Origin: an uncultured Actinomycetes bacterium
GTDB taxonomy: Bacteria > Actinomycetota > Acidimicrobiia > Acidimicrobiales > CAVRDY01
Direction: 5' to 3'
Length of the DNA stretch: 64,000 nt
Assembly (NCBI GenBank): GCA_963719935.1
Contig: CAVRDY010000008.1
Coordinates: 74,118 to 138,117 of the forward strand
Both the position numbers and the translations under genes were made by a program. The notes under the pieces are model-generated. The model was not told where the DNA came from. It saw only the letters and a program-made list of their open reading frames with translations, and searched no databases. This document shows positions 3,252 to 62,702 of this stretch, one piece after another; the stretch's first letter is position 1, and the number at the start of each line of letters is the position of its first letter.

Positions 3252-3318
3252 CGCATCGGTGCTGGTCGGCTGGACCCCTGGTGTGTGCCCTCTCCGACGA
3301 GGTGACCATGGAGGGCCT

Positions 3319-3337
3319 AGCAGACTGAGGTTCCATG
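3319..3337 (+). repeat. Array A left boundary site (AGCAGACTGAGGTTC)
   Basis: 15 bp identical to 59555-59569. Confidence 0.65.
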
Positions 3338-3372
3338 AGCAGGTCTGCGAGAGCGCAACCGTGGCGCTGCGG

Positions 3373-3678
3373 TTAGCCGATGCGAAGGTCGAACGCGTCC
3401 CCGATGGCGCGGGCGAGCTCGGACTCCTGGTCGTCGAACAACAGACCGATGGTCCCGCCGACGGCTTCGGCCCTCACGGTCGTGATGTTGTCGCAGCTGA
3501 TCACGCAGTCTCGGTCGAGGCCGTTTCGTGGGCCAATGGGCACCTCGCTAGTGATGCCGCGGACCGTGGTGGTGATCGGGGCGACGGTGACCCACGCCAG
3601 GAGGTGGCGCTTCGACTCTCGCGTCAGGATCAGCGCCGGGCGGGCCTTGTCCAGCCGAACGGTCGCGATGGATCGCAT
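3373..3678 (-). CDS. mazF: PemK/MazF-family toxin
   Basis: KARPALILTR, VTVAPITTTVRGITSEV and VISCDNITT; 101 aa, coupled to an upstream small gene. Confidence 0.9.
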   Translation of the reverse strand: MRSIATVRLDKARPALILTRESKRHLLAWVTVAPITTTVRGITSEVPIGPRNGLDRDCVISCDNITTVRAEAVGGTIGLLFDDQESELARAIGDAFDLRIG

Positions 3679-3917
3679 CAGTCCATCTGAGGATGGGGCA
3701 GGTCGAAGATGCCGTCGAGGTCGGGGTAGAGCGACTCACCGCGACGGGCGATCTCTAGAAGGACGGCTTCCTCGCCGCGATAGCGCTGCTCCCGTCGTAG
3801 CTGGGCGATGCTCCGACGAAGGGCATCTGAGCGATTGGCAGCACGTCCCTGTGCAACCTCGGCGTCGAGGGCTTCTACTTCGGCGTCATCGAGGCGCACC
3901 GCGATCTGTGTGGTCAT
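3678..3917 (-). CDS. Ribbon-helix-helix antitoxin (MazE-like)
   Basis: MTTQIAVRLDD...ANRSDALRR RHH signature; 79 aa; stop overlaps toxin start. Confidence 0.85.
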   Translation of the reverse strand: MTTQIAVRLDDAEVEALDAEVAQGRAANRSDALRRSIAQLRREQRYRGEEAVLLEIARRGESLYPDLDGIFDLPHPQMD

Positions 3918-3958: not shown

Positions 3959-4103
3959 CGTCTGGTGCCCGCATTGCTCGCCGTGTTCGAACTGGCAGCA
4001 CTGGTGGCGGGCGTTCCTCGATGCTGCCGCTGACCCGTCGGTGGTCGCGCCGGGACGGTTCATCGTTGTTGGTTCTGGTGTCGCCCGTGCCGTCGCGCCG
4101 TCC

Positions 4104-4137
4104 GAAGGGACGCATTCGCGACTCGTGAGGTTCGTGA
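4104..4137 (+). repeat. Cassette junction motif A2
   Basis: GAAGGGACGCATTCGCGACTCGTGAGGTTCGTGA, similar to 60398-60431 and 61091-61125. Confidence 0.75.
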
Positions 4138-4157
4138 TGTCGGTCCGGATGGCGAGG

Positions 4158-4482
4158 TCAGCGCTCCAGGATCACCACGAGGTCGAGCTTGCGAGCGTTT
4201 TCGCCGACGTCGAAGCGATCGACCGTGCGGTACGGGGCACCCTCCGGGTCTCGGTGGCGAACCAACTCCCCGGCTTCAGGGCGCGGATCGATCAACCACA
4301 CCTCGGGCACACCCGCCTTCGCGTAGGCGACGAGCTTGGCGCCACGATCGCGGGCCTGCGTGGTGACACTAACCTCCACGATCAGCTTCACAGCGGAGAC
4401 TGGAATCGCGTCATCGGGCTCGAACTGGGCCCCGATCTCGACGACGTACACATCCGGGTCAACGATCGACATTGGACTCAGC
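4158..4482 (-). pseudogene. Uma2-family endonuclease, 5'-deleted copy
   Basis: 96 of the 107 C-terminal aa are identical to the 60452-60988 product; about 300 bp including the start codon are deleted. Confidence 0.85.
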
Positions 4483-4483
4483 G

Positions 4484-4530
4484 CGCGTCGGGCGTTGGAA
4501 GGGGATGGCAGGGCGACGGGCGAGGTTCGT
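4484..4530 (+). repeat. Cassette junction motif A3
   Basis: 4484-4509 is identical to 61077-61102, followed by ...GCGACGGGCGAGGTTCGT. Confidence 0.75.
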
Positions 4531-4572
4531 AGAGGCCGTGGGCAACCATGGCTCCGGGTTGGCTCACAAGCC

Positions 4573-6522
4573 TCAGTGATCGACCAGCTCCACCAGTTCG
4601 AGGCCGGTCCGGGCCCGGTCCAGGCGGGCCTGACCATCGGGGTCGTCAAGGTAGGCGGGCCGCAACGGAGCCGGCTTGAGGACCCGGCGACGCTGGAGCT
4701 CCTCGATGATCGGCGCGTGATCGGTGGCGATCTTGCCGATCATCAGCGTCTCGAGGTGGCCTCCGTCGGCCAGGTAGTCCAGGACCTTCTGCACGCCCCG
4801 GAGGTAGATCGAATCCTTCACGAACCCCCCACCCCGGTGCACCCGCGTGGTGATCAAGAAGGCGGGACGGGGCGCAAACCCCAACTCGTCGGTGAGGAGC
4901 CGGTAGGTGTCCACGAAGCCGGCACCCTCCAGGAGGCTCTGGGAGGCCAGCACGCGCGCGGCCAGGGTGCGCATGCGGGTCGGGGTCAGACCCCCGGCCA
5001 GGTACTCGGCGAACACGGCGAGGCCCTCCTGGAGCTCGTCGTAGTGGGCCAGGCCCACCGACAGAAGCCGGAAGGGCTGGGCCCGTCCGTTCCAGTGGGT
5101 GACGATGTGGGTACCGACCTCGTGCTGGAGCAGCGGGTCCACCCGGTTGACCGGGAACTTCATGCTCCGCCCCACGAGCAACTGGCCGCTGGAGACCATG
5201 AGCGAGGTGAGGTCGTCGCGAACCTGGACCTGGCTGTCGAAGGGCGGGAAGGCGCTTCGGTAGTTGTCCATCTCTTCGCAGGCCCGGGCCACGAACCTCT
5301 CCGAGTTCACCTGGCGGACCCGGCGCCCGCCCTCGGTCGCCTCGAGTGTGTCGAGCACGCGACGGGCCTGTGCCATCAGCTGGGGCTCGATGGTGCCGTA
5401 GAGCGCGAGCGACAGCGGCAGGAACCGCCGCCTCTCTCGCTCCACGAGCAGCGACAGCTTCAGGTCCAGATCGCCCTTCTTCTCGCGAAACAGGTTTGCC
5501 ATGGTCGGGTCCTCGACCCGGTCGACGTCGATGGCGTGCAGACGGCGCTTCAGGTCGTCGGGATCGAAGTCGCGAGGCCGGTAACTGAAGGTGGGTTCAC
5601 GGTCGCTCCCGGACCGGTTGAACTGGGTCCGTGCCGCCTCGACGTTGGTGGGCGACACGTAGAGCAGCAGGTCGAACTCGTCGGAGATGGCCGCCAGCGC
5701 CGCGTCGACCTGCCAGGCGGCCTTGGTGAAGGCACGGGTGCCCAGAGCCTGGTAGTGCCGGGGCCGCGCCATCGTCTCGCTGCGGGCGAACTCGAAGCAG
5801 GCCTGGCGGATGGCCCGCGAGAGCTGGTGAGCCAGACTGCGCTTCGCCAGCGGGTACGGCTCGCCGGTCTCGGGATTGCGGTGCACGGGACGGACTTCGA
5901 TGCCGATGGCGTCACTGTTGAGGCGAGCCAGCTCCGCCGCACTGGCCAGGGGGGCCATCCCAGCCGCCCCGATTCGACCCCCGGCCACCACGTCAACCGC
6001 GGCAGGCTGCTTGAACAGCTCGATCCGTCCCAGGGATGCGACGAGCTGGCGCACCGTGGACGACTCGGCGAAGCGGCGCGGTGTGACCACCCGGAACCCG
6101 GGTGGTGGAGGGCTACCGCTGGTGTCGGGACGGGCTCCTGCGTCGGGACCGGCCCACACCTCCACGACCAGGAAGCCACCGAAGGTGGCCGACAGCGTCT
6201 CGGCCACCACTTGGGCCAGGGCCCGCGTGCGAACACGCAGACGACGGTCGTCGGGGGCCAGGAGATAGGCGGCCTCGCTGCGCACCAGATCGCGTATCCC
6301 TGCGTCGGGACGCCCCGGAGGCCGGTAGACGACCAGAAACGGGAGCTGGCGGTCGATGTTGAGCCGCCCACCACCGGGCAGGGTGCGCCGGACGCGCTCG
6401 TTGGCTTCCAGCCGGCGGCGCACCGTGGCCAGAAGCTTGTCGTCCATGACCGGCGCCCGACTCCGGCGACCCTTTGCGCCGCTCGTGGCTCGGGCCTTCG
6501 AACGAACCGGCGGGTCAGCCAC
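4573..6522 (-). CDS. DUF1704 / MATCAP-like metallopeptidase (QEGLA-motif protein)
   Basis: HEVGTH zinc motif, downstream ELQEGLA, and RVHRGGGFVKDSIYLRG. Confidence 0.85.
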   Translation of the reverse strand: MADPPVRSKARATSGAKGRRSRAPVMDDKLLATVRRRLEANERVRRTLPGGGRLNIDRQLPFLVVYRPPGRPDAGIRDLVRSEAAYLLAPDDRRLRVRTRALAQVVAETLSATFGGFLVVEVWAGPDAGARPDTSGSPPPPGFRVVTPRRFAESSTVRQLVASLGRIELFKQPAAVDVVAGGRIGAAGMAPLASAAELARLNSDAIGIEVRPVHRNPETGEPYPLAKRSLAHQLSRAIRQACFEFARSETMARPRHYQALGTRAFTKAAWQVDAALAAISDEFDLLLYVSPTNVEAARTQFNRSGSDREPTFSYRPRDFDPDDLKRRLHAIDVDRVEDPTMANLFREKKGDLDLKLSLLVERERRRFLPLSLALYGTIEPQLMAQARRVLDTLEATEGGRRVRQVNSERFVARACEEMDNYRSAFPPFDSQVQVRDDLTSLMVSSGQLLVGRSMKFPVNRVDPLLQHEVGTHIVTHWNGRAQPFRLLSVGLAHYDELQEGLAVFAEYLAGGLTPTRMRTLAARVLASQSLLEGAGFVDTYRLLTDELGFAPRPAFLITTRVHRGGGFVKDSIYLRGVQKVLDYLADGGHLETLMIGKIATDHAPIIEELQRRRVLKPAPLRPAYLDDPDGQARLDRARTGLELVELVDH

Positions 6523-30113: not shown

Positions 30114-31477
30114 AGCTCCGACGGCAACTCCTGAGCGGCGTCGTGGGCGCGGCGCTGCTGGTCGGCACTGTGGCCGTCGGCGCGGCCGGAGCCGCCGACC
30201 CGCCCTGGCACGTGCGACGCCTGCCTCTCGGTGGCATCTCCGGCAGCCCGGCCCCCGGGTCGACGCTGATCCCCTGCAACCAGCCCGGCCCCAAGGTGGT
30301 CCTGACCGCGTCGGCGCACCTGGAGACGGGCTGCATCTACCGGGTTCCCTTCGAGATCAGAGCATCTGACGTGACCCTGGACTGCCAGGGGGCACGCCTG
30401 TACGGCCAGGGATCCCGGGGGATCCTGGTGGCCGCACCCACCACCGAGGCCCTGCACGACGTCACCGTACGCAACTGCAACGTCGAGGGCTGGCTCAACA
30501 ACGTCCGTATCACCCGCGACGGCTTCAAGACGCTACCGGAGGGCGGCGAGTACGAACACGGCTTCGAACGGATCACAGTGGAGAACTCGAGGCTGCTGCG
30601 TTCACGCGGCAGCGGGATCTTCGTGGACGGCTTCGTGACGGGGGTGACCCTGCAAGACCTGGAAGTCGGACTGGCCGGCAGCGTGGGCATCTACCTCGAG
30701 GCGGGCTCTGTGGGCACCGTCGTGCAACGCAGCTGGATACACGACAACGGTTACGGCGACGTGAAGCCCGAGGGCGTCCCTTTCACACTGGGCGGAAAGG
30801 AGTTCCGCTACCTGAGCACTGGGCGGGAAGGAATCGCCGTGGACGGCTCACGCGACAACGTGATCACCGGCAACCGCCTTGACCGCAACTCTGCCGGAGG
30901 CATCTTCGTCTACAAGAACTGCGGCGAGAACGTCTCCGAGCCCGGGTGGTGGACCCGACGGTACGGCTCCACCGGCAACCTCATCGAAGGCAACGTGCTG
31001 CGCTTCCACAGCACCGGCATCTGGCTGGCCAGCCGCCAGTCCGAGAACCAGATGTTCATGGACTGCTCCGACACCCCCTTCCACACGGGGCCCTTCCGGC
31101 GCGTGTTCCACGACCCGGCGACCGACAACGTCGTGCGGGCCAACACCATCAGGTACGCGACCTGGGGAGTACGGGTGGAGGACGACCGCAACCGCATCGA
31201 GGCCAACCGCTTCGAGGGCACCGACCCGTCGGCATGGGCCGTCCTGGTGGGCACCAAGGAGCGCACGCTGCGCCTGGGCCAGCCCGTGAACGGCGTGGAA
31301 CTGATCGGCAATCGCTCCCTGCTACCCCGGACACAGCCCTACGGCTGGATCCACGGCCACACCGGCACCCTCGACACGGGCAACACGGCGATGGGAGCAC
31401 CCGTAGGGCTCGTGGAGGGTGAACAGCCCACCATCAACCCCTTCCTGTTCGTGATCTCGGCCTGGCCAGCGCCCTGA
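30110..31477 (+). CDS. Secreted right-handed parallel beta-helix protein
   Basis: GTG start overlapping upstream stop; signal peptide with RR; repeated GI-x-V/N beta-helix rungs. Confidence 0.75.
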
Positions 31478-31507
31478 GCCTCGCGTCAGGAGTACCGGCC
31501 CAACCTC

Positions 31508-33157
31508 TCACGCGTCGGGTTCGGGATCGGAAGTGAACAAACGGTCCGCCACTGACGACGACTCCGGTTCGGGATCGGAAGTGAACAAACGGTCCGCCAC
31601 CGACGACGACTCCGGTTCGGGATCGGAAGTGAACAAGCGGTCCGCAACCGACGACGACTCCGGTTCGGGATCGGAAGTGAACAAGCGGTCCGCAACCGAC
31701 GACGACTCCGGTTCGGGATCGGAAGTGAACAAGCGGTCCGCAACGGCGGCCTCCTGCCCACCCGTGGTCTCGACAGGTGGGCCCGCCGGGAGCTGTGCCT
31801 CGCGAGCGGCTATCTCACCCGAGAACTCTTCACGCTCGAAGACGTCCCCGCTCAGCTTGATGCCCAGGTCGGCAAGCTTCTCGGCGAACTTGGGCCGAAC
31901 CCCGGTGGCCTTCAGTCGGCCCCGGTGCTTACCCTGGTCGTCGGTGCCCATCCCGAAGTCGAAGAGGAAGACGTCCTGGGTGGTTATCTCGTCGCCCTCC
32001 ATCGACTGGACCTCGGTGATGTGGGTGATCCGGCGGCTTCCGTCCCGTAGCCGGTTCATGTGGACCACAAGGTCCAGTGCCGAGGCGAGCTGCTCTCGGA
32101 TGGCCCGCACCGGCAGGTCGTAGCCGGCCATGAGCACGAGCGTCTCGAGCCGGGCCAGAGCGTCGCGAGGGGCGTTGGCGTGGAGCGTCGTCAGTGAACC
32201 GTCATGGCCGGTGTTCATGGCCTGGAGCATGTCGAGTGCCTCCGAACCACGGCACTCGCCGACCACGATGCGATCCGGGCGCATCCGGAGCGTGTTCTTG
32301 ACCAGCATGCGGATGGTGATCTCACCCTGGTTCTCGACATTGGGTGGCCGGGACTCGAGGCACAGCACATGGTCCTGGTGAAGCTGTAGCTCCTTGGCAT
32401 CCTCGACGGTGATGATCCGCTCTACCGGCGGGATGAAGCTGGACAACACGTTGAGAGTGGTCGTCTTGCCCGAAGAGGAGCCCCCCGAGACCGCGATGTT
32501 CAACCGGCCCACCACGCAGGCCTGGAGGAACCGTGCCGCCTTGGCGTTGACCGTGTCGAAACGGATGAGGTCGTCGACGGTGAGGCGCTCCTCGGCGAAC
32601 TTGCGGATCGTCAAGAACGGCCCATCGAGTGCCACCGGGTGGATCACCGCGTTGACGCGCGACCCGTCGGGAAGCCGGGCGTCGCACAACGGGCTGGACT
32701 CGTCGATACGCCGGCCGATCTCACCCACGATCTTGTCGATGATGCGCCGCAGGTGGGTCTCATCGACGAAGGTGACGTCGGTCTTCTCCAGCTTGGAACC
32801 CCGCTCGACGTACACCGAGTCGGGTCCGTTCACCAGGATGTCGGTCACGGCGGGATCGCGGAGGAAGGTGTCGATGGGCCCGTAGCCCATGATGTCGTCG
32901 GTGATCTCGTCGATCATCCGGGACCGGTCCGAAGCCGACAGGGGCACCGACGAGCGGGCGATGACCATCTGGAGGGTGTCCCGCACCCGGCGGCGCAGCT
33001 CATCGGGCTCGATGGTGCGGTCGAAGAGGATGGGGCCCAGTTCGTCGATCAGCTGACCGTGAACCGTGGCCCGCAGCTCGGCCACGGGCTCGGACAGCTT
33101 GCTCAGGCCCTTCTCGGGTGCAGCCTTGGCACCTTGCAGGCGCTGGTAGAGCGACAC
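31508..33157 (-). CDS. cpaF: CpaF/TadA-family pilus assembly ATPase with repeat tail
   Basis: GGSSSGKTT Walker A, TVEDAKEL, LRMRPDRIVVGECRG and AMNTGHDGS. Confidence 0.9.
   Translation of the reverse strand: MSLYQRLQGAKAAPEKGLSKLSEPVAELRATVHGQLIDELGPILFDRTIEPDELRRRVRDTLQMVIARSSVPLSASDRSRMIDEITDDIMGYGPIDTFLRDPAVTDILVNGPDSVYVERGSKLEKTDVTFVDETHLRRIIDKIVGEIGRRIDESSPLCDARLPDGSRVNAVIHPVALDGPFLTIRKFAEERLTVDDLIRFDTVNAKAARFLQACVVGRLNIAVSGGSSSGKTTTLNVLSSFIPPVERIITVEDAKELQLHQDHVLCLESRPPNVENQGEITIRMLVKNTLRMRPDRIVVGECRGSEALDMLQAMNTGHDGSLTTLHANAPRDALARLETLVLMAGYDLPVRAIREQLASALDLVVHMNRLRDGSRRITHITEVQSMEGDEITTQDVFLFDFGMGTDDQGKHRGRLKATGVRPKFAEKLADLGIKLSGDVFEREEFSGEIAAREAQLPAGPPVETTGGQEAAVADRLFTSDPEPESSSVADRLFTSDPEPESSSVADRLFTSDPEPESSSVADRLFTSDPEPESSSVADRLFTSDPEPDA
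31518..31744. repeat. 48-bp tandem repeat, about 4.7 copies
   Basis: Unit GGTTCGGGATCGGAAGTGAACAARCGGTCCGCMACYGACGACGACTCC starting at 31518, 31566, 31614, 31662 and 31710. Confidence 0.95.
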
Positions 33158-59099: not shown

Positions 59100-59564
59100 A
59101 TGGCCGAGATCCCCGCCGACGTCGCCCAGCCCTTCGTGGAGCTGCCATGGGTTCGATTCCTGGGAATCGAGATGATCTCGGCGGAGCCCGGACGGGTCAC
59201 CTTGGGGATCGATCCACGACCCGAGCACCACAACCAGAACGGCACCGTCAACGCACCGGTGATGTTCGGCCTGGCCGAGGCCGCAGGAGCAGCCGCCTTG
59301 GTCATGGGGTTCCTCGACCTGCTGGGTACGACCTACAGCGTTGTGCGCCACGCGGAGATGCACTTCCTCGCTGCCGCCCGAGGACCGATCACCGCCACAG
59401 GCACCGTCGACCCCCAGGAAGTGGACAGGGTTCGTTCCCTGGTGGAGTCGGGTGAGGCGGTGGATCTCCCGATCCCCGTGGAGGTGCACGACCGGGAGTC
59501 ACGCACCGTCGCCCGGATCGACATGGTCATGGCAGTCCGGGCGCTGCGTGACACAGCAGACTGA
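59100..59564 (+). CDS. PaaI/DUF4442 hotdog-fold thioesterase
   Basis: HHNQNGTVNAPVMFGLAE; stop TGA lies inside the junction motif. Confidence 0.8.
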   Translation: MAEIPADVAQPFVELPWVRFLGIEMISAEPGRVTLGIDPRPEHHNQNGTVNAPVMFGLAEAAGAAALVMGFLDLLGTTYSVVRHAEMHFLAAARGPITATGTVDPQEVDRVRSLVESGEAVDLPIPVEVHDRESRTVARIDMVMAVRALRDTAD

Positions 59565-59593
59565 GGTTCGTGACGGTGCGTGTCATCTGGTCC
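59555..59593 (+). repeat. Array B left boundary site B1
   Basis: 59555-59569 equals 3319-3333; 59561-59593 matches 61113-61145 at 32 of 33 bp. Confidence 0.8.
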
Positions 59594-59731: not shown

Positions 59732-60112
59732 TCAGATCGTCTCCACCCGGACGTGGTCGGCGTGCGTCGCGAGTGCGCGGAGATCTCCAGGATCACCGGT
59801 GAGCACGCGTCCGGCCGGTTCGGCGAACGCGATCACGAGTGCGTCCACAGCCGAGCCCCGCTTCGCGCGGAATCGCAACAGGGCGGCGCGACGTGCTGTC
59901 TTCTCCGGGAACTCGGTGATCAGATCGCAGGTCTTGAGAAGACGGTTCGTGTTCGCGTCCCGCCCCGGACGTCCGGTAACCGATTCGACGACCACGACCG
60001 ATGGAACGGCCGGAGGCCAGAGTCCATCGCGGCGGAGGACGCTGATGATGGCGGCCGTCTGTCGATCTCGGCGCGCGAGTCTCGTGACAGCGCCACTGTC
60101 GAGCACCAACAC
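59732..60112 (-). CDS. vapC: PIN-domain toxin (VapC-like)
   Basis: MLVLDSGAV, VVVE, SAVDALV and LTGDPGDL. Confidence 0.85.
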   Translation of the reverse strand: MLVLDSGAVTRLARRDRQTAAIISVLRRDGLWPPAVPSVVVVESVTGRPGRDANTNRLLKTCDLITEFPEKTARRAALLRFRAKRGSAVDALVIAFAEPAGRVLTGDPGDLRALATHADHVRVETI

Positions 60113-60115
60113 GGC

Positions 60116-60364
60116 TCAGCTGGCGCGATCGGTCGCGTGGGCAGCGAGCTGCCGTGCGATGGCCTCAGCCCGAGCGATCTCGTCTGGTGTCGGTTCGCCC
60201 ACCTCGTCGATCAACTCGGTCAGGTAGGCGTCGGTCTCATCGAGAAGCGACTGGCGGCGCAACTCTGCACGTACCGCCTCCTGCAGGAGCTCCGACGCTG
60301 GAAGGCCGCGCTCCTTCAATTCGTCGTACAGGTCGTCGGGCAGGTACACCTGCATCCGCGGCAT
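60116..60364 (-). CDS. RHH antitoxin (VapB/CcdA-like)
   Basis: MPRMQVYLPDDLY...SELLQEAVRAEL; TATAGT 7 nt upstream suggests a leaderless transcript. Confidence 0.85.
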   Translation of the reverse strand: MPRMQVYLPDDLYDELKERGLPASELLQEAVRAELRRQSLLDETDAYLTELIDEVGEPTPDEIARAEAIARQLAAHATDRAS

Positions 60365-60397
60365 ACGCCTAACTATACACACTGCGCTCGATCGCGT

Positions 60398-60431
60398 AAG
60401 GGGATGGCTTTCCGACTCGTGAGGTTTGAGA
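60398..60431 (+). repeat. Cassette junction motif B2
   Basis: AAGGGGATGGCTTTCCGACTCGTGAGGTTTGAGA. Confidence 0.75.
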
Positions 60432-60451
60432 TGTCGGTCCGGATGGCGAGG

Positions 60452-60988
60452 TCAGCGGTCCAGAATCACCGCGAGGTCGAGCTCGCGAGCGTTCTCACCG
60501 ACATCGAAGCGATCGAGGGTGCGGTACGAGGCACCCTCTGGGTCTCGGTGGCGAACCAACTCCCCGGCTTCAGGGCGCGGATCGATCAACCACACCTCGG
60601 GCACACCCGCCTTCGCATAGGCGATGAGCTTGGCGCCACGATCGTGGGCCTGCGTGGTGACACTCACCTCCACGATCAGCTTCACAGCGGAGACCGGAAT
60701 CGCGTCATCGGGCTCGAAATGGGCCCCGACCTCGACCACGTACACATCCGGGTCGACCATCGACACCGGACTCAGCCGTACGCTCCCGGCGTTGAACGTC
60801 GTCTCGTCCGGGAACAGCGCGTCCAGCTGGCGAAACACACGCATCACGGTGCTCGTATGGCGGTTGAACTCTGGTGTCACGTCGTACACCACTCCCTCGA
60901 TGAGCTCGGTTGATTGCCAACCGAGTTCACGAACGATGCGGATGTACTCGTCGACGGTCACACGGTGGATGTCTGCTGCGACGGTCAC
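60452..60988 (-). CDS. Uma2-family PD-(D/E)XK endonuclease, intact (alternative start 60997)
   Basis: ELIEGVV, H, DPDVYV, LIVEVS, DRGAKLIAYAKAGVPEVWLID. Confidence 0.9.
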   Translation of the reverse strand: MTVAADIHRVTVDEYIRIVRELGWQSTELIEGVVYDVTPEFNRHTSTVMRVFRQLDALFPDETTFNAGSVRLSPVSMVDPDVYVVEVGAHFEPDDAIPVSAVKLIVEVSVTTQAHDRGAKLIAYAKAGVPEVWLIDPRPEAGELVRHRDPEGASYRTLDRFDVGENARELDLAVILDR

Positions 60989-61090
60989 GGGCCTCACCTC
61001 GTTCGAATGAATGTGCTCGGGGAAGCAAGCTCATCGTCCCACGGAACCAGACGAAGACACAATCGTTCCGGCGCCACGCGTCGGGCGTTG

Positions 61091-61145
61091 GAAGGGGATG
61101 GCTTCGCGACTGCTGAGGTTCGTGACGGTGCGCGTCATCTGGTCC
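61091..61145 (+). repeat. Cassette junction motif B3
   Basis: GAAGGGGATGGCTTCGCGACTGCTGAGGTTCGTGACGGTGCGCGTCATCTGGTCC. Confidence 0.8.
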
Positions 61146-61163
61146 GCACCCAGCCCCCCTTCC

Positions 61164-61271
61164 CACGCCGTGCAGTACATGTTGATCGGGGGTGTCGCAG
61201 CGCTGCTCCACGGCGCTCGACGGCCGACGCTCGATCCCGACCTCCTTCCAGGCTCGGATCACGAGAACCTC
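61164..61271 (+). pseudogene. N-terminal fragment of a nucleotidyltransferase-like (TA-associated) gene
   Basis: HAVQYMLIGGVAALLHGARRPTLDPDLLP...ENL resembles the GG...H...T-x-D-x-D NTase motif. Confidence 0.55.
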
Positions 61272-61282
61272 AACCCCCGTCC

Positions 61283-61304
61283 TCCCGATTTGTGAAGTTC
61301 GTGA
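61283..61304 (+). repeat. Cassette junction motif B4 (degenerate)
   Basis: TCCCGATTTGTGAAGTTCGTGA. Confidence 0.6.
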
Positions 61305-61324
61305 CGTCGATCCGCGAACGCTGT

Positions 61325-61404
61325 CCGCGCTTGAAGATCGCCACTACATCGAGCTCGCGTGCGTTCGCGTCGACGGTCATGCGATGGATCTCTTGTGCGA
61401 CGGC
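61325..61404 (-). pseudogene. Mini-Uma2: N- and C-termini fused by an internal deletion
   Basis: Reads VAQEIHRMTVD-ANARELDVVAIFKR versus intact VAADIHRVTVD...ENARELDLAVILDR. Confidence 0.75.
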
Positions 61405-61434: not shown

Positions 61435-62597
61435 TCAGGTGCCCTTGTAGTTGAGGACCTGGTGCAGGGTGTGCACCACCTCCACCAGGTCGGCCTGGTC
61501 GGCCATCACCTGGTCGATGTCCTTGTAGGCGGAGGGGATCTCGTCGAGCAATGCCTGGGCGCGGTCGGCCTGCCAGACCGTACCGGCCATCCGATCGGCC
61601 AGCTCGGTGGCGGTGAACAGCTTCTTGGCCTGGGTCCGGCTGTGGCGACGGCCGGCACCGTGCGAGCACGAGTGCCAGGACGCGGCGCTGCCCCTGCCGG
61701 CCACGATGTAGCTGCGGGTCCCCATCGACCCCGGGATCACCCCGAGATCGCCGGTGTCGGCCTTGATGGCCCCCTTGCGGGTGATCCACAACTCGACGCC
61801 GTCGTGGACCTCGCGCTGGGTGAAGTTGTGGTGGCAGTTGATCCTCCGGGTCTGGCGCCCCGCTCCGACGAAGGCCACGACCTCCCGCAACGCGGCGTCC
61901 ATCATCTGGTCGCGGTTGGCCCAGCGCGTAGTCCTGGGCCCAGAGCATGTCGGTTATGTAGGCCTCGAACTCGGGGGTGCCTTCGGTGAAGTAGGCCAGA
62001 TCGGGGTCCTCGAGGCGCAGCGCCAGGTGCTTGGCCAGGCTGCGGGCCCGGGCGATGTGCTGTTGGGCCAACTGGTTGCCGATGCCCCGGCTGCCCGAGT
62101 GCAACACGATCCAGACCCGGTCGCGCTCGTCGAGGCAGATCTCCACGAAGTGGTTGCCCGAACCCAGCGTGCCGAACTGGCGGGCCGCGGTCACCACCTG
62201 CTTGCCAGCCAGGTCGGTGGCAGGCCGGTTGGCGCGGAGCCAGCGGTCAGCTGGCCGGCGTACCCGGTCGTGACCCTGGCCGACGCCCGCGGGGATGACC
62301 GACTCGAGGCGCGACGAGCAGTGGCCCCAGGTCGTCGGGCAGCCGGGACGCGACCAGGTCGAGCTCGGTGGCGATCATGCCGCAGCCGATGTCGACGCCC
62401 ACCGCAGCGGGGATCACCGCCTCGCGGGTCGGGATGACCGATCCCACGGTGGCGCCCAACCCCACGTGGGCGTCAGGCATGAGGGCCACGTGGCCCGCCA
62501 CGATGGGCAGGCGCGCCGTCTTCTCGGCCTGGCGGACGGTGCCGGCGTCGATGTCGCTGGCCCAGGAGATGAGCTTGTCGTTGATCGCGGTGGGCAT
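61435..62597 (-). CDS. rtcB: RNA ligase RtcB (frameshifted)
   Basis: LMPDAHVG, VGVDIGCG, GTLGSGNHFVE, LHSGSRG, CHHN, IPGSMG, HGAGR and DEIPSAYK. Confidence 0.92.
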
Positions 62598-62702
62598 GGC
62601 CCTGATCCTTGGGGCGTGGAACGGACCCACCGGTCTACCCGCCGGTGAGTCCCTGCCCACAAGGGGTTTGCGTCGTGCGCCGTCGCGCGCCGGCGTGCGG
62701 GC

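Follow-up and report, generated by a model that had tools for sequence, protein, structure and literature searches.

A Uma2 gene copy that has lost its 5′ part, but still lies between the repeated ends of its module, raises the question of whether such a unit moves from motif to motif or was left behind by something larger. The first-pass annotation took the former view and regarded the deleted copy as a non-autonomous derivative of a mobile element. We analyzed the surrounding 64,000 nt of contig CAVRDY010000008.1 (GCA_963719935.1), hereafter the window, together with the source genome (G000, 74% complete), other Acidimicrobiia-type genomes (G008, G401, G004, and G201) and metagenome loci (L076, L106, and L108, the last two being one locus that is counted once, which leaves two independent loci). 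Contigs of the source genome are given as C-numbers, and coordinates with no contig label are window positions. The deleted Uma2 copy is probably a passenger between direct repeats that match the attR of a large serine recombinase (LSR) whose target is an asparagine codon of DUF222/HNH genes, and would have been stranded by excision of the element core and decayed in place. This degree of confidence applies to the reading as a whole, all recombination steps of which are deduced from sequence.

Two cassette arrays in the window

Sites in G000 were located with a weight matrix built from the first motif copies, using the reversed genome as a control, in which no motif score exceeded 14 bits. Thirteen attR-type sites were found, and all those of a given locus point the same way. 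Five lie in the window (TT cores at 4131, 4526, 60425, 61119, and 61298), and eight are in tandem on C1, spaced 717–1343 bp apart in a single orientation. The conserved motif reads GGGG-N5-TT-NN-CGACT-N-GTGAGG, followed by TT; it is 28 positions long, and 18 of these are conserved at a level of at least 75% across 31 sites. As the site-picking patterns contain TT, the presence of TT in 31 of 31 sites is circular. Cargo between the sites, which can face either way, comprises RHH-PIN and RHH-MazF pairs, DUF6036/AbiEii-like nucleotidyltransferases, Uma2 genes, and an unnamed gene pair. The proposal of the first-pass annotation that the repeated motif is a true mobile-element boundary is supported.

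The features of array 1 are as follows.

3316..3345, plus strand: left site with host-type (B) arm, TT core at 3331-3332 and B' arm; putative footprint (restored attB)
3373..3678, minus strand: MazF/PemK toxin, cargo (Pfam PF02452, E=1.3e-10)
3678..3917, minus strand: RHH antitoxin, cargo (Pfam PF01402, E=1.4e-5)
3975..4102, plus strand: remnant of a two-gene cassette with several internal deletions (intact twice on C1; a 91-bp block is 96% identical)
4103..4147, plus strand: attR-type site with P arm at 4103-4130, TT core at 4131-4132, then B' arm
4158..4481, minus strand: 5′-truncated Uma2 gene of 107 codons with no stop or frameshift, lacking a start codon and RBS
4481..4482, plus strand: junction of the 299-bp deletion, from alignment to the intact copy
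4498..4542, plus strand: outermost attR of the array, with damaged inner arm, TT core at 4526-4527, then host DNA

The features of array 2 are as follows.

59551..59593, plus strand: left site with B arm, TT core at 59567-59568 and the shared 25-bp B' stretch; putative footprint
59732..60112, minus strand: PIN-domain toxin, cargo (PF01850, E=0.017, a weak match under the cut-off)
60116..60382, minus strand: RHH antitoxin, cargo (PF07878, E=1.2e-4, under the cut-off)
60397..60441, plus strand: attR-type site, TT core at 60425-60426
60452..60997, minus strand: intact Uma2 gene, 181 aa (PF05685, E=7.6e-20)
61091..61148, plus strand: attR-type site, TT core at 61119-61120, with the shared B' stretch
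61170..61275, plus strand: remnant of a nucleotidyltransferase (DUF6036/AbiEii-like) cassette, reduced from ~838 bp to 179 bp
61270..61313, plus strand: degenerate attR-type site, TT core at 61298-61299, 11 of 18 conserved positions
61300..61404, minus strand: second deleted Uma2 copy, missing ~450 bp relative to the C4 copy; no site follows

The B arm at 3316..3345 is weaker than at the other three B-arm places, and that of the left site of array 2 overlaps the stop codon of a DUF4442 gene. On the minus strand, the B' arm of the 4103..4147 site reads HNH-like T-D-I-T codons. Array 2 has lost its last site. No recombinase ORF was found in either window array, and NCBIfam named no G000 cargo protein. 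Elsewhere in the window, a 649-aa gene at 4573-6522 carries a MATCAP (microtubule tyrosine carboxypeptidase-like) domain (E=2e-86), and a 48-bp tandem repeat with at least five copies occupies 31462-31749.

The deleted Uma2 copy

The first-pass annotation described a copy homologous to the intact gene up to a direct jump, with about 300 bp gone, both termini remaining, and a motif-to-motif unit of about 694 bp when intact. Alignment agrees with most of this description: 4119-4482 and 60413-60776 share 339 of 364 nt (96 of 107 aa), 4484-4509 matches 61077-61102 at all 26 nt, and a global alignment contains a single 299-nt gap, the equivalent of 60776-61074. The junction at 4481/4482 is ambiguous by 1 nt only. 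Through the deletion, Uma2 has lost 74 codons from its N-terminal end together with its GTG start and the leader that precedes it. From site to site the intact cassette measures 694 bp in the window and likewise in an unrelated metagenome contig (L106), compared with 395 bp for the deleted one. The termini survive in part: the outer half of the right arm (4498-4525) is kept, but the arm is damaged, with 14 of 18 conserved positions against 16–18 at most sites and a score of 29.6 bits, the ten best sites reaching 40–53 bits.

Assembly frameshifts are numerous (e.g., rtcB and typA are split), yet we saw no sign of a 299-bp assembly error in any of the material. None of the assembled public-read contigs examined crosses the deletion junction. 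The rtcB gene at 61435-62660 is broken into pieces, which, together with other split genes, suggests indel errors of long-read assembly.

The two Uma2 copies differ by 23 changes, 12 synonymous and 11 non-synonymous (pN/pS 0.31, p=0.005 versus neutrality), which indicates that they diverged as working genes and that the deletion came late. Most of the divergence between the deleted and intact copies presumably arose under purifying selection, before the deletion. Counting copies of the junction, as the first-pass annotation had recommended, returned one in the 74%-complete source genome and none at the other loci compared. This single copy, its damaged right arm, at least three other deleted cassettes in the window, and the unexpectedness of direct attR × attR exchange leave a non-autonomous motif-to-motif element unsupported; divergence that preceded the deletion and similar deletions in other cassette types likewise speak against a traveling derivative. 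In-place decay of a stranded cassette fits the deleted copy better than motif-to-motif mobility: the deletion is real, it is ordinary decay, and nothing indicates that the deleted copy moves. The further suggestion that the Uma2 ORF is dispensable for movement holds, since the motif bounds many cassettes that carry no Uma2 and is associated with a serine recombinase elsewhere. Uma2 thus appears to be cargo, and movement would not need it.

A serine recombinase and its site on C1

An intact LSR gene at C1:156808-158208 encodes 466 aa with Resolvase, Recombinase, and Zn-ribbon domains (Pfam). The adjoining stretch C1:156765-156809 consists of the B arm common to the window left sites, TT, and an inverted arm, and ends at the LSR start codon. 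The element site accordingly takes the form of an inverted repeat of ~28+2+28 bp around the TT core, one arm of which is the repeated motif and the other of which lies immediately upstream of the LSR start codon. Of the 15 outer conserved positions, 14 agree in the inverted arm, a value that random 28-mers reach at a frequency of 3.5e-6; genome-wide, its score of 13.3 bits lies within noise (23 control matches exceed 13), and it should count as evidence by position only. This site is the only attL in G000 and lies 12–19 kb left of the C1 array, with 18.7 kb between attL and the last of the eight sites. Within the island, the start of a TrwC relaxase gene follows the LSR, the relaxase gene is split by another insertion, and the cargo has a lower GC content. 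A second LSR in the island (742 aa) was rejected as the cassette integrase; it belongs to a separate two-copy insertion, the one that splits the relaxase gene.

Several other features of the island and genome were observed. A small reverse ORF lies just after the LSR (C1:158230-158480; L291 8231-8481, minus strand); it is common to G000 and G201 (52% over 31 aa), has no other copy in G000, and is a candidate recombination directionality factor. At C1:156790-156810 the LSR lacks a ribosome-binding site, and the att arm contains a −10-like hexamer, identified by eye, 7 nt upstream of the ATG, which suggests a leaderless LSR transcript starting inside the att site. A two-gene cassette encoding 137 aa and ~85 aa (L001 10237-10924 and 13267-13950) has no Pfam or NCBIfam match; C1 carries two copies and several other genomes also contain it, and it is possibly an unnamed toxin-antitoxin pair. 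A second element family with a primase-like gene, a Xer-like integrase, and an XRE gene occurs at C9:2000-22000, C8:7800-19400, and C13:250000-270000 beside RHS-like genes, with a ~130-bp repeat every 1.4 kb on C9, and G000 contains many TrwC modules with different integrases. A 19-nt motif match inside the transposase gene of ISAzo13 copies (15.5 bits) was taken as chance.

The target in DUF222/HNH genes

The anatomy of a whole element could be read from G201:C18, where an HNH 3′ half is followed by TT, the inverted arm, the LSR, the small reverse ORF, a Rep-like gene (identified by eye), cargo, the arm, TT, and an HNH 5′ half, over a total element length of 5.5 kb. The DUF222/HNH halves are in frame on both sides and the gene is split at the Asn codon, the target being the T-D-L-x-N / L-x-L-L-C coding stretch of these genes. 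The two arms match at 10 of 15 outer conserved positions. This whole element identifies the motif as attR and the site before the LSR as attL, and gives the window left sites the make-up of target sites. Its cargo is a single ~790-aa ORF with a P-loop (L322, minus strand, ~300-2700), possibly a defense protein.

The same target can be recognized in the arms of other sites. Before the same core, the left arm differs from the motif in three arrays (window 3331, window 59567, and C4:136605) and reads N-L-S-L-L-C (N-L-S-L-L-G at window 3331), the continuation of HNH; this left-arm pattern occurs at four places in G000, namely window 59551, C4, one intact HNH gene, and C1:156765. Right of the core, the minus strand reads as HNH coding sequence as far as the conserved Asn. 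HNH 5′ coding sequence adjoins the core at 5 of 31 sites (L076, L106, G004 twice, and G201), with long 5′ halves in L076, L106, and G004:C148 (DUF222) and a deleted 5′ half in G004:C60. Away from HNH halves, 23 distinct B' arms still show the signal (median of 0.9 bits versus −10.2 for 4145 control sites, p=2e-7), though common ancestry and the selection on five B' positions both reduce the weight of this test. The flanks of the G000 loci contain no HNH gene that could be rejoined. Three unrelated host loci that retain no HNH gene have a near-identical B arm over 16–17 bp, a likeness beyond chance that simple target choice does not explain; possible sources are erosion of former HNH copies or a landing pad that is carried along. 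On C4 (L002 11600-12915), two tandem Uma2 genes follow the footprint at the rsmE end; the pair lacks an intervening site and is followed by no more than a degenerate arm.

Occurrence in other genomes

At this level of likeness the cassette system appears to be rare, with two true genomes besides G000 among 401. A 27-nt motif pattern (three mismatches allowed) matched 11 of 401 genomes, compared with 13 control matches, and true sites among the ten genomes besides G000 were confined to G008 and G004; a 17-nt pattern matched 63 of the 401, and the 30 loci examined contained no site outside G000. A class-wide pattern matched 2 of 301 genomes, and a pattern search of a genome collection yielded one stretch, that of G401. 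Three of 44 metagenome stretches with a pattern match held several sites (L076, L106, and L108); the remainder, with single matches only, were dropped. Searches of viral contigs for the motif site, of plasmids for the array, and of viruses for relatives of the C1 LSR found none. Among public sequencing runs, the largest share of words in any run was 0.11, a small share that is uninformative on habitat, and no run of the source strain was present; public reads and contigs contained neither a circle nor an empty site of the same strain.

Where sites do occur, cassettes are shared across families and loci. G008, which belongs to another family, carries at a different locus a nucleotidyltransferase cassette whose site-to-site identity is 85%. 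In G401, eight sites accompany genes of toxin-antitoxin type; G004 has three sites and one inverted, and the two independent metagenome loci have two and three. A contig from run X1 carries a Uma2 gene 94% like the deleted copy, joined at a site to a different cassette end, the one that closes the C1 array in G000. Homologous cassettes at 28 other loci had no site in a weight-matrix scan, indicating that the cargo also occurs outside this system. A 6.1-kb stretch of L229 (G004:C148, 1150-7270) has inverted arms at both ends and no recombinase inside; it is flanked by an HNH 5′ half on one side and on the other by a 3′ half that starts like a different paralogue, and this 3′ half lies near the contig end, where misassembly is possible.

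Homologues of the LSR (E<=1e-40) are present in 36 of 381 genomes, a tally that includes the unpublished G142, on which nothing else here depends. Of 28 homologue loci inspected, three of which have little upstream DNA, one has a site, that of the closest relative, G201 (65%), the others being at most 51% identical. The LSR clade numbers at least 120 relatives at identities of at least 64%. With the C1 LSR as the query, no close member of the clade was found in G008 or G401, and the best match in G004 was 34% identical. Two plasmid LSRs (54–55% identical) have no HNH half at the left end, which indicates that the wider family has other targets. On a Gordonia plasmid (L334 28953-28985, NZ_CP059695.1), a 16-bit arm-plus-TT site lies 14 kb after a 55%-identical LSR and is a candidate attR with a non-HNH target.

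Proposed mechanism and alternative explanations

As the boundary site matches an LSR attR, successive integration events likely build the stacks, and excision of the core likely strands them. Once integrated, an element would possess a single attL, and accretion would provide it with several attR. If it left through attL and an inner attR, the core would be removed and a restored target would remain together with the outer cassettes, as in the window arrays and on C4; if it left through an outer attR, it would take the cassettes along. A newcomer integrating at the footprint would place its cargo leftmost in the stack, such that stacks would grow and cassettes would change neighbors. Internal deletions and homology-driven loss between repeats would erode the stacks, toxin-antitoxin cargo would resist loss, and Uma2 would play no part in movement. 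The recombinase is less likely to excise from motif to motif, the ends of the Uma2 cassette being direct-repeat attR and not a left and a right end. Serine integrases favor an antiparallel alignment of attR × attR pairs, and their attP and attB arms differ by 5 bp in the position of the zinc-domain motif (PMC3783163). Judging from the antiparallel alignment, exchange between attR sites in direct repeat with a non-palindromic TT core should be unproductive.

In other explanations, single cassettes move. In the most far-reaching of these, which we consider rather doubtful, the LSR clade docking in HNH genes would be equivalent to an integron: it would capture, stack, excise, and reorder single toxin-antitoxin and nuclease cassettes via attR-type repeats, and the cassettes would each bring a landing pad of their own and pass between Acidimicrobiia families. 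In a narrower form, the LSR and a directionality factor would excise single cassettes between neighboring repeats and reinsert them at the footprint, which implies that every motif-to-motif unit is mobile, deleted or not, and amounts to the idea of the first-pass annotation with the enzyme named. Cassette ends do coincide with sites across genomes, a single array holds up to seven cassettes, the same B' stretch opens six G000 cassettes and the G008 cassette, and ends have often, though not always, survived loss of the middle (four cassettes in the window and one in L106). However, the antiparallel alignment makes direct-repeat exchange presumably unproductive, the deleted copy occurs only once, with one of its arms damaged, and nested excision plus homologous loss would give the same shuffles. 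We regard this form as unlikely.

It is highly improbable that the repeats are relics of LSR integration in whose present shuffling and loss, due to host homologous recombination or slippage between 30–55-bp repeats, the integrase has ceased to play any part, an explanation that is in part compatible with a stranded passenger. The site arms look mosaic and diverge more than adjacent genes, and three site-bearing genomes have no close LSR. Identity of the two window Uma2 copies also extends ~7 bp left of the TGAGG block, beyond the inferred crossover, so homology-driven exchange may contribute. Yet such recombination adds no cassettes at new loci and moves none between families, and G000 retains an intact LSR and attL in the island of its longest array. 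Finally, Uma2 is the commonest cargo in G000 (tblastn matches at seven places and the short remnant at 61300), and Uma2 genes are reported to form paralogue cassettes in cyanobacteria and have been proposed as solo toxins (PMC2701414), but the view of Uma2 as a selfish nuclease able to mobilize its module and also, in trans, deleted copies is scarcely credible given that the motif bounds many Uma2-free cassettes (G008, G004, G401, and G201), that a weight-matrix scan found no motif site at the Uma2 copies on C9 and C7, and that the site geometry indicates an LSR.

Stranding of passengers by core excision, followed by decay in place, thus remains our preferred explanation of the deleted copy. 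The system offers a serine integrase with both predicted natural sites and its target codon, which is directly testable in a plasmid assay, and permits a clear test of whether cassette arrays can be driven by an LSR, i.e., nested attL × attR versus single-cassette attR × attR excision. It also shows a possible route by which toxin-antitoxin modules form ordered stacks and spread between uncultured actinobacteria in the absence of an integron.

Comparison with known systems

Integron arrays consist of small cassettes bounded by direct repeats, with cargo in either orientation and an abundance of toxin-antitoxin modules. The arrays described here resemble them in the direct-repeat-bounded, small, toxin-antitoxin-rich cassettes but differ in lacking an integron integrase and a conserved site hairpin: the best match to the IntI profile TIGR02249 reached 74 bits against a cut-off of 265 (0 of 4 genomes above it), and 29 sites folded on both strands shared no structure, with z mostly between −2 and +2. 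Tyrosine recombinases were also rejected, as no site lies near 30 tyrosine-recombinase loci. The deleted Uma2 cassette resembles a MITE-like derivative in its internal deletion and largely kept ends; here, there are no terminal inverted repeats, the ends are direct-repeat att sites, and the junction is found in one copy. A literature search, with most subscription journals outside its coverage, returned nothing on this LSR clade or on attR-bounded toxin-antitoxin arrays.

The REP13E12 repeat of Mycobacterium tuberculosis encodes DUF222/HNH proteins. The phiRv1 element of M. tuberculosis integrates inside this repeated host sequence by means of a serine recombinase (PMC9317374) and shares with the present elements a serine integrase and a repeated host target. 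In the present elements the crossover lies in the HNH Asn codon. Unlike phiRv1, their cores contain a gene for a relaxase or Rep in place of phage genes, and they stack as many as eight attR. DUF222 is enriched among LSR targets (19/1069 versus 1/908 controls), as is HNH (Durrant et al., PMC10083194); the DUF222/HNH-targeting LSR clusters of that study thus have the same target genes, and the portions compared contain no site sequence or cassette arrays.

Accretion at att sites is known from CIMEs and IMEs (ICESt1-type), in which decayed elements keep att sites and newcomers integrate at a resident att, with cis-mobilization and nested excision (PMC5704250). In those systems the integrase is mostly a tyrosine enzyme acting at the ends of genes, and attL and attR both persist; the present stacks instead involve a serine integrase whose target gene is multicopy, and their short cassettes have attR as the only kind of att boundary. 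As in CIMEs, integration and transfer genes are lost, with no recombinase ORF in the window arrays; both attL and attR are not retained, the window cassettes being bounded by attR-type sites or a target-type footprint. SCC composites and ccr-less islands are likewise LSR-driven, with internal att sites that part modules and modules that carry no recombinase (PMC13739063). SCC uses Ccr at rlmH, whereas the target here is HNH and the modules measure 0.7–1.3 kb; the C1 LSR is not a Ccr, its 60.8 bits lying far under the cut-offs (900). The parts are already known from phiRv1, CIME accretion, and SCC composites, and the system that surrounds the deleted Uma2 copy would represent a variant of LSR accretion.
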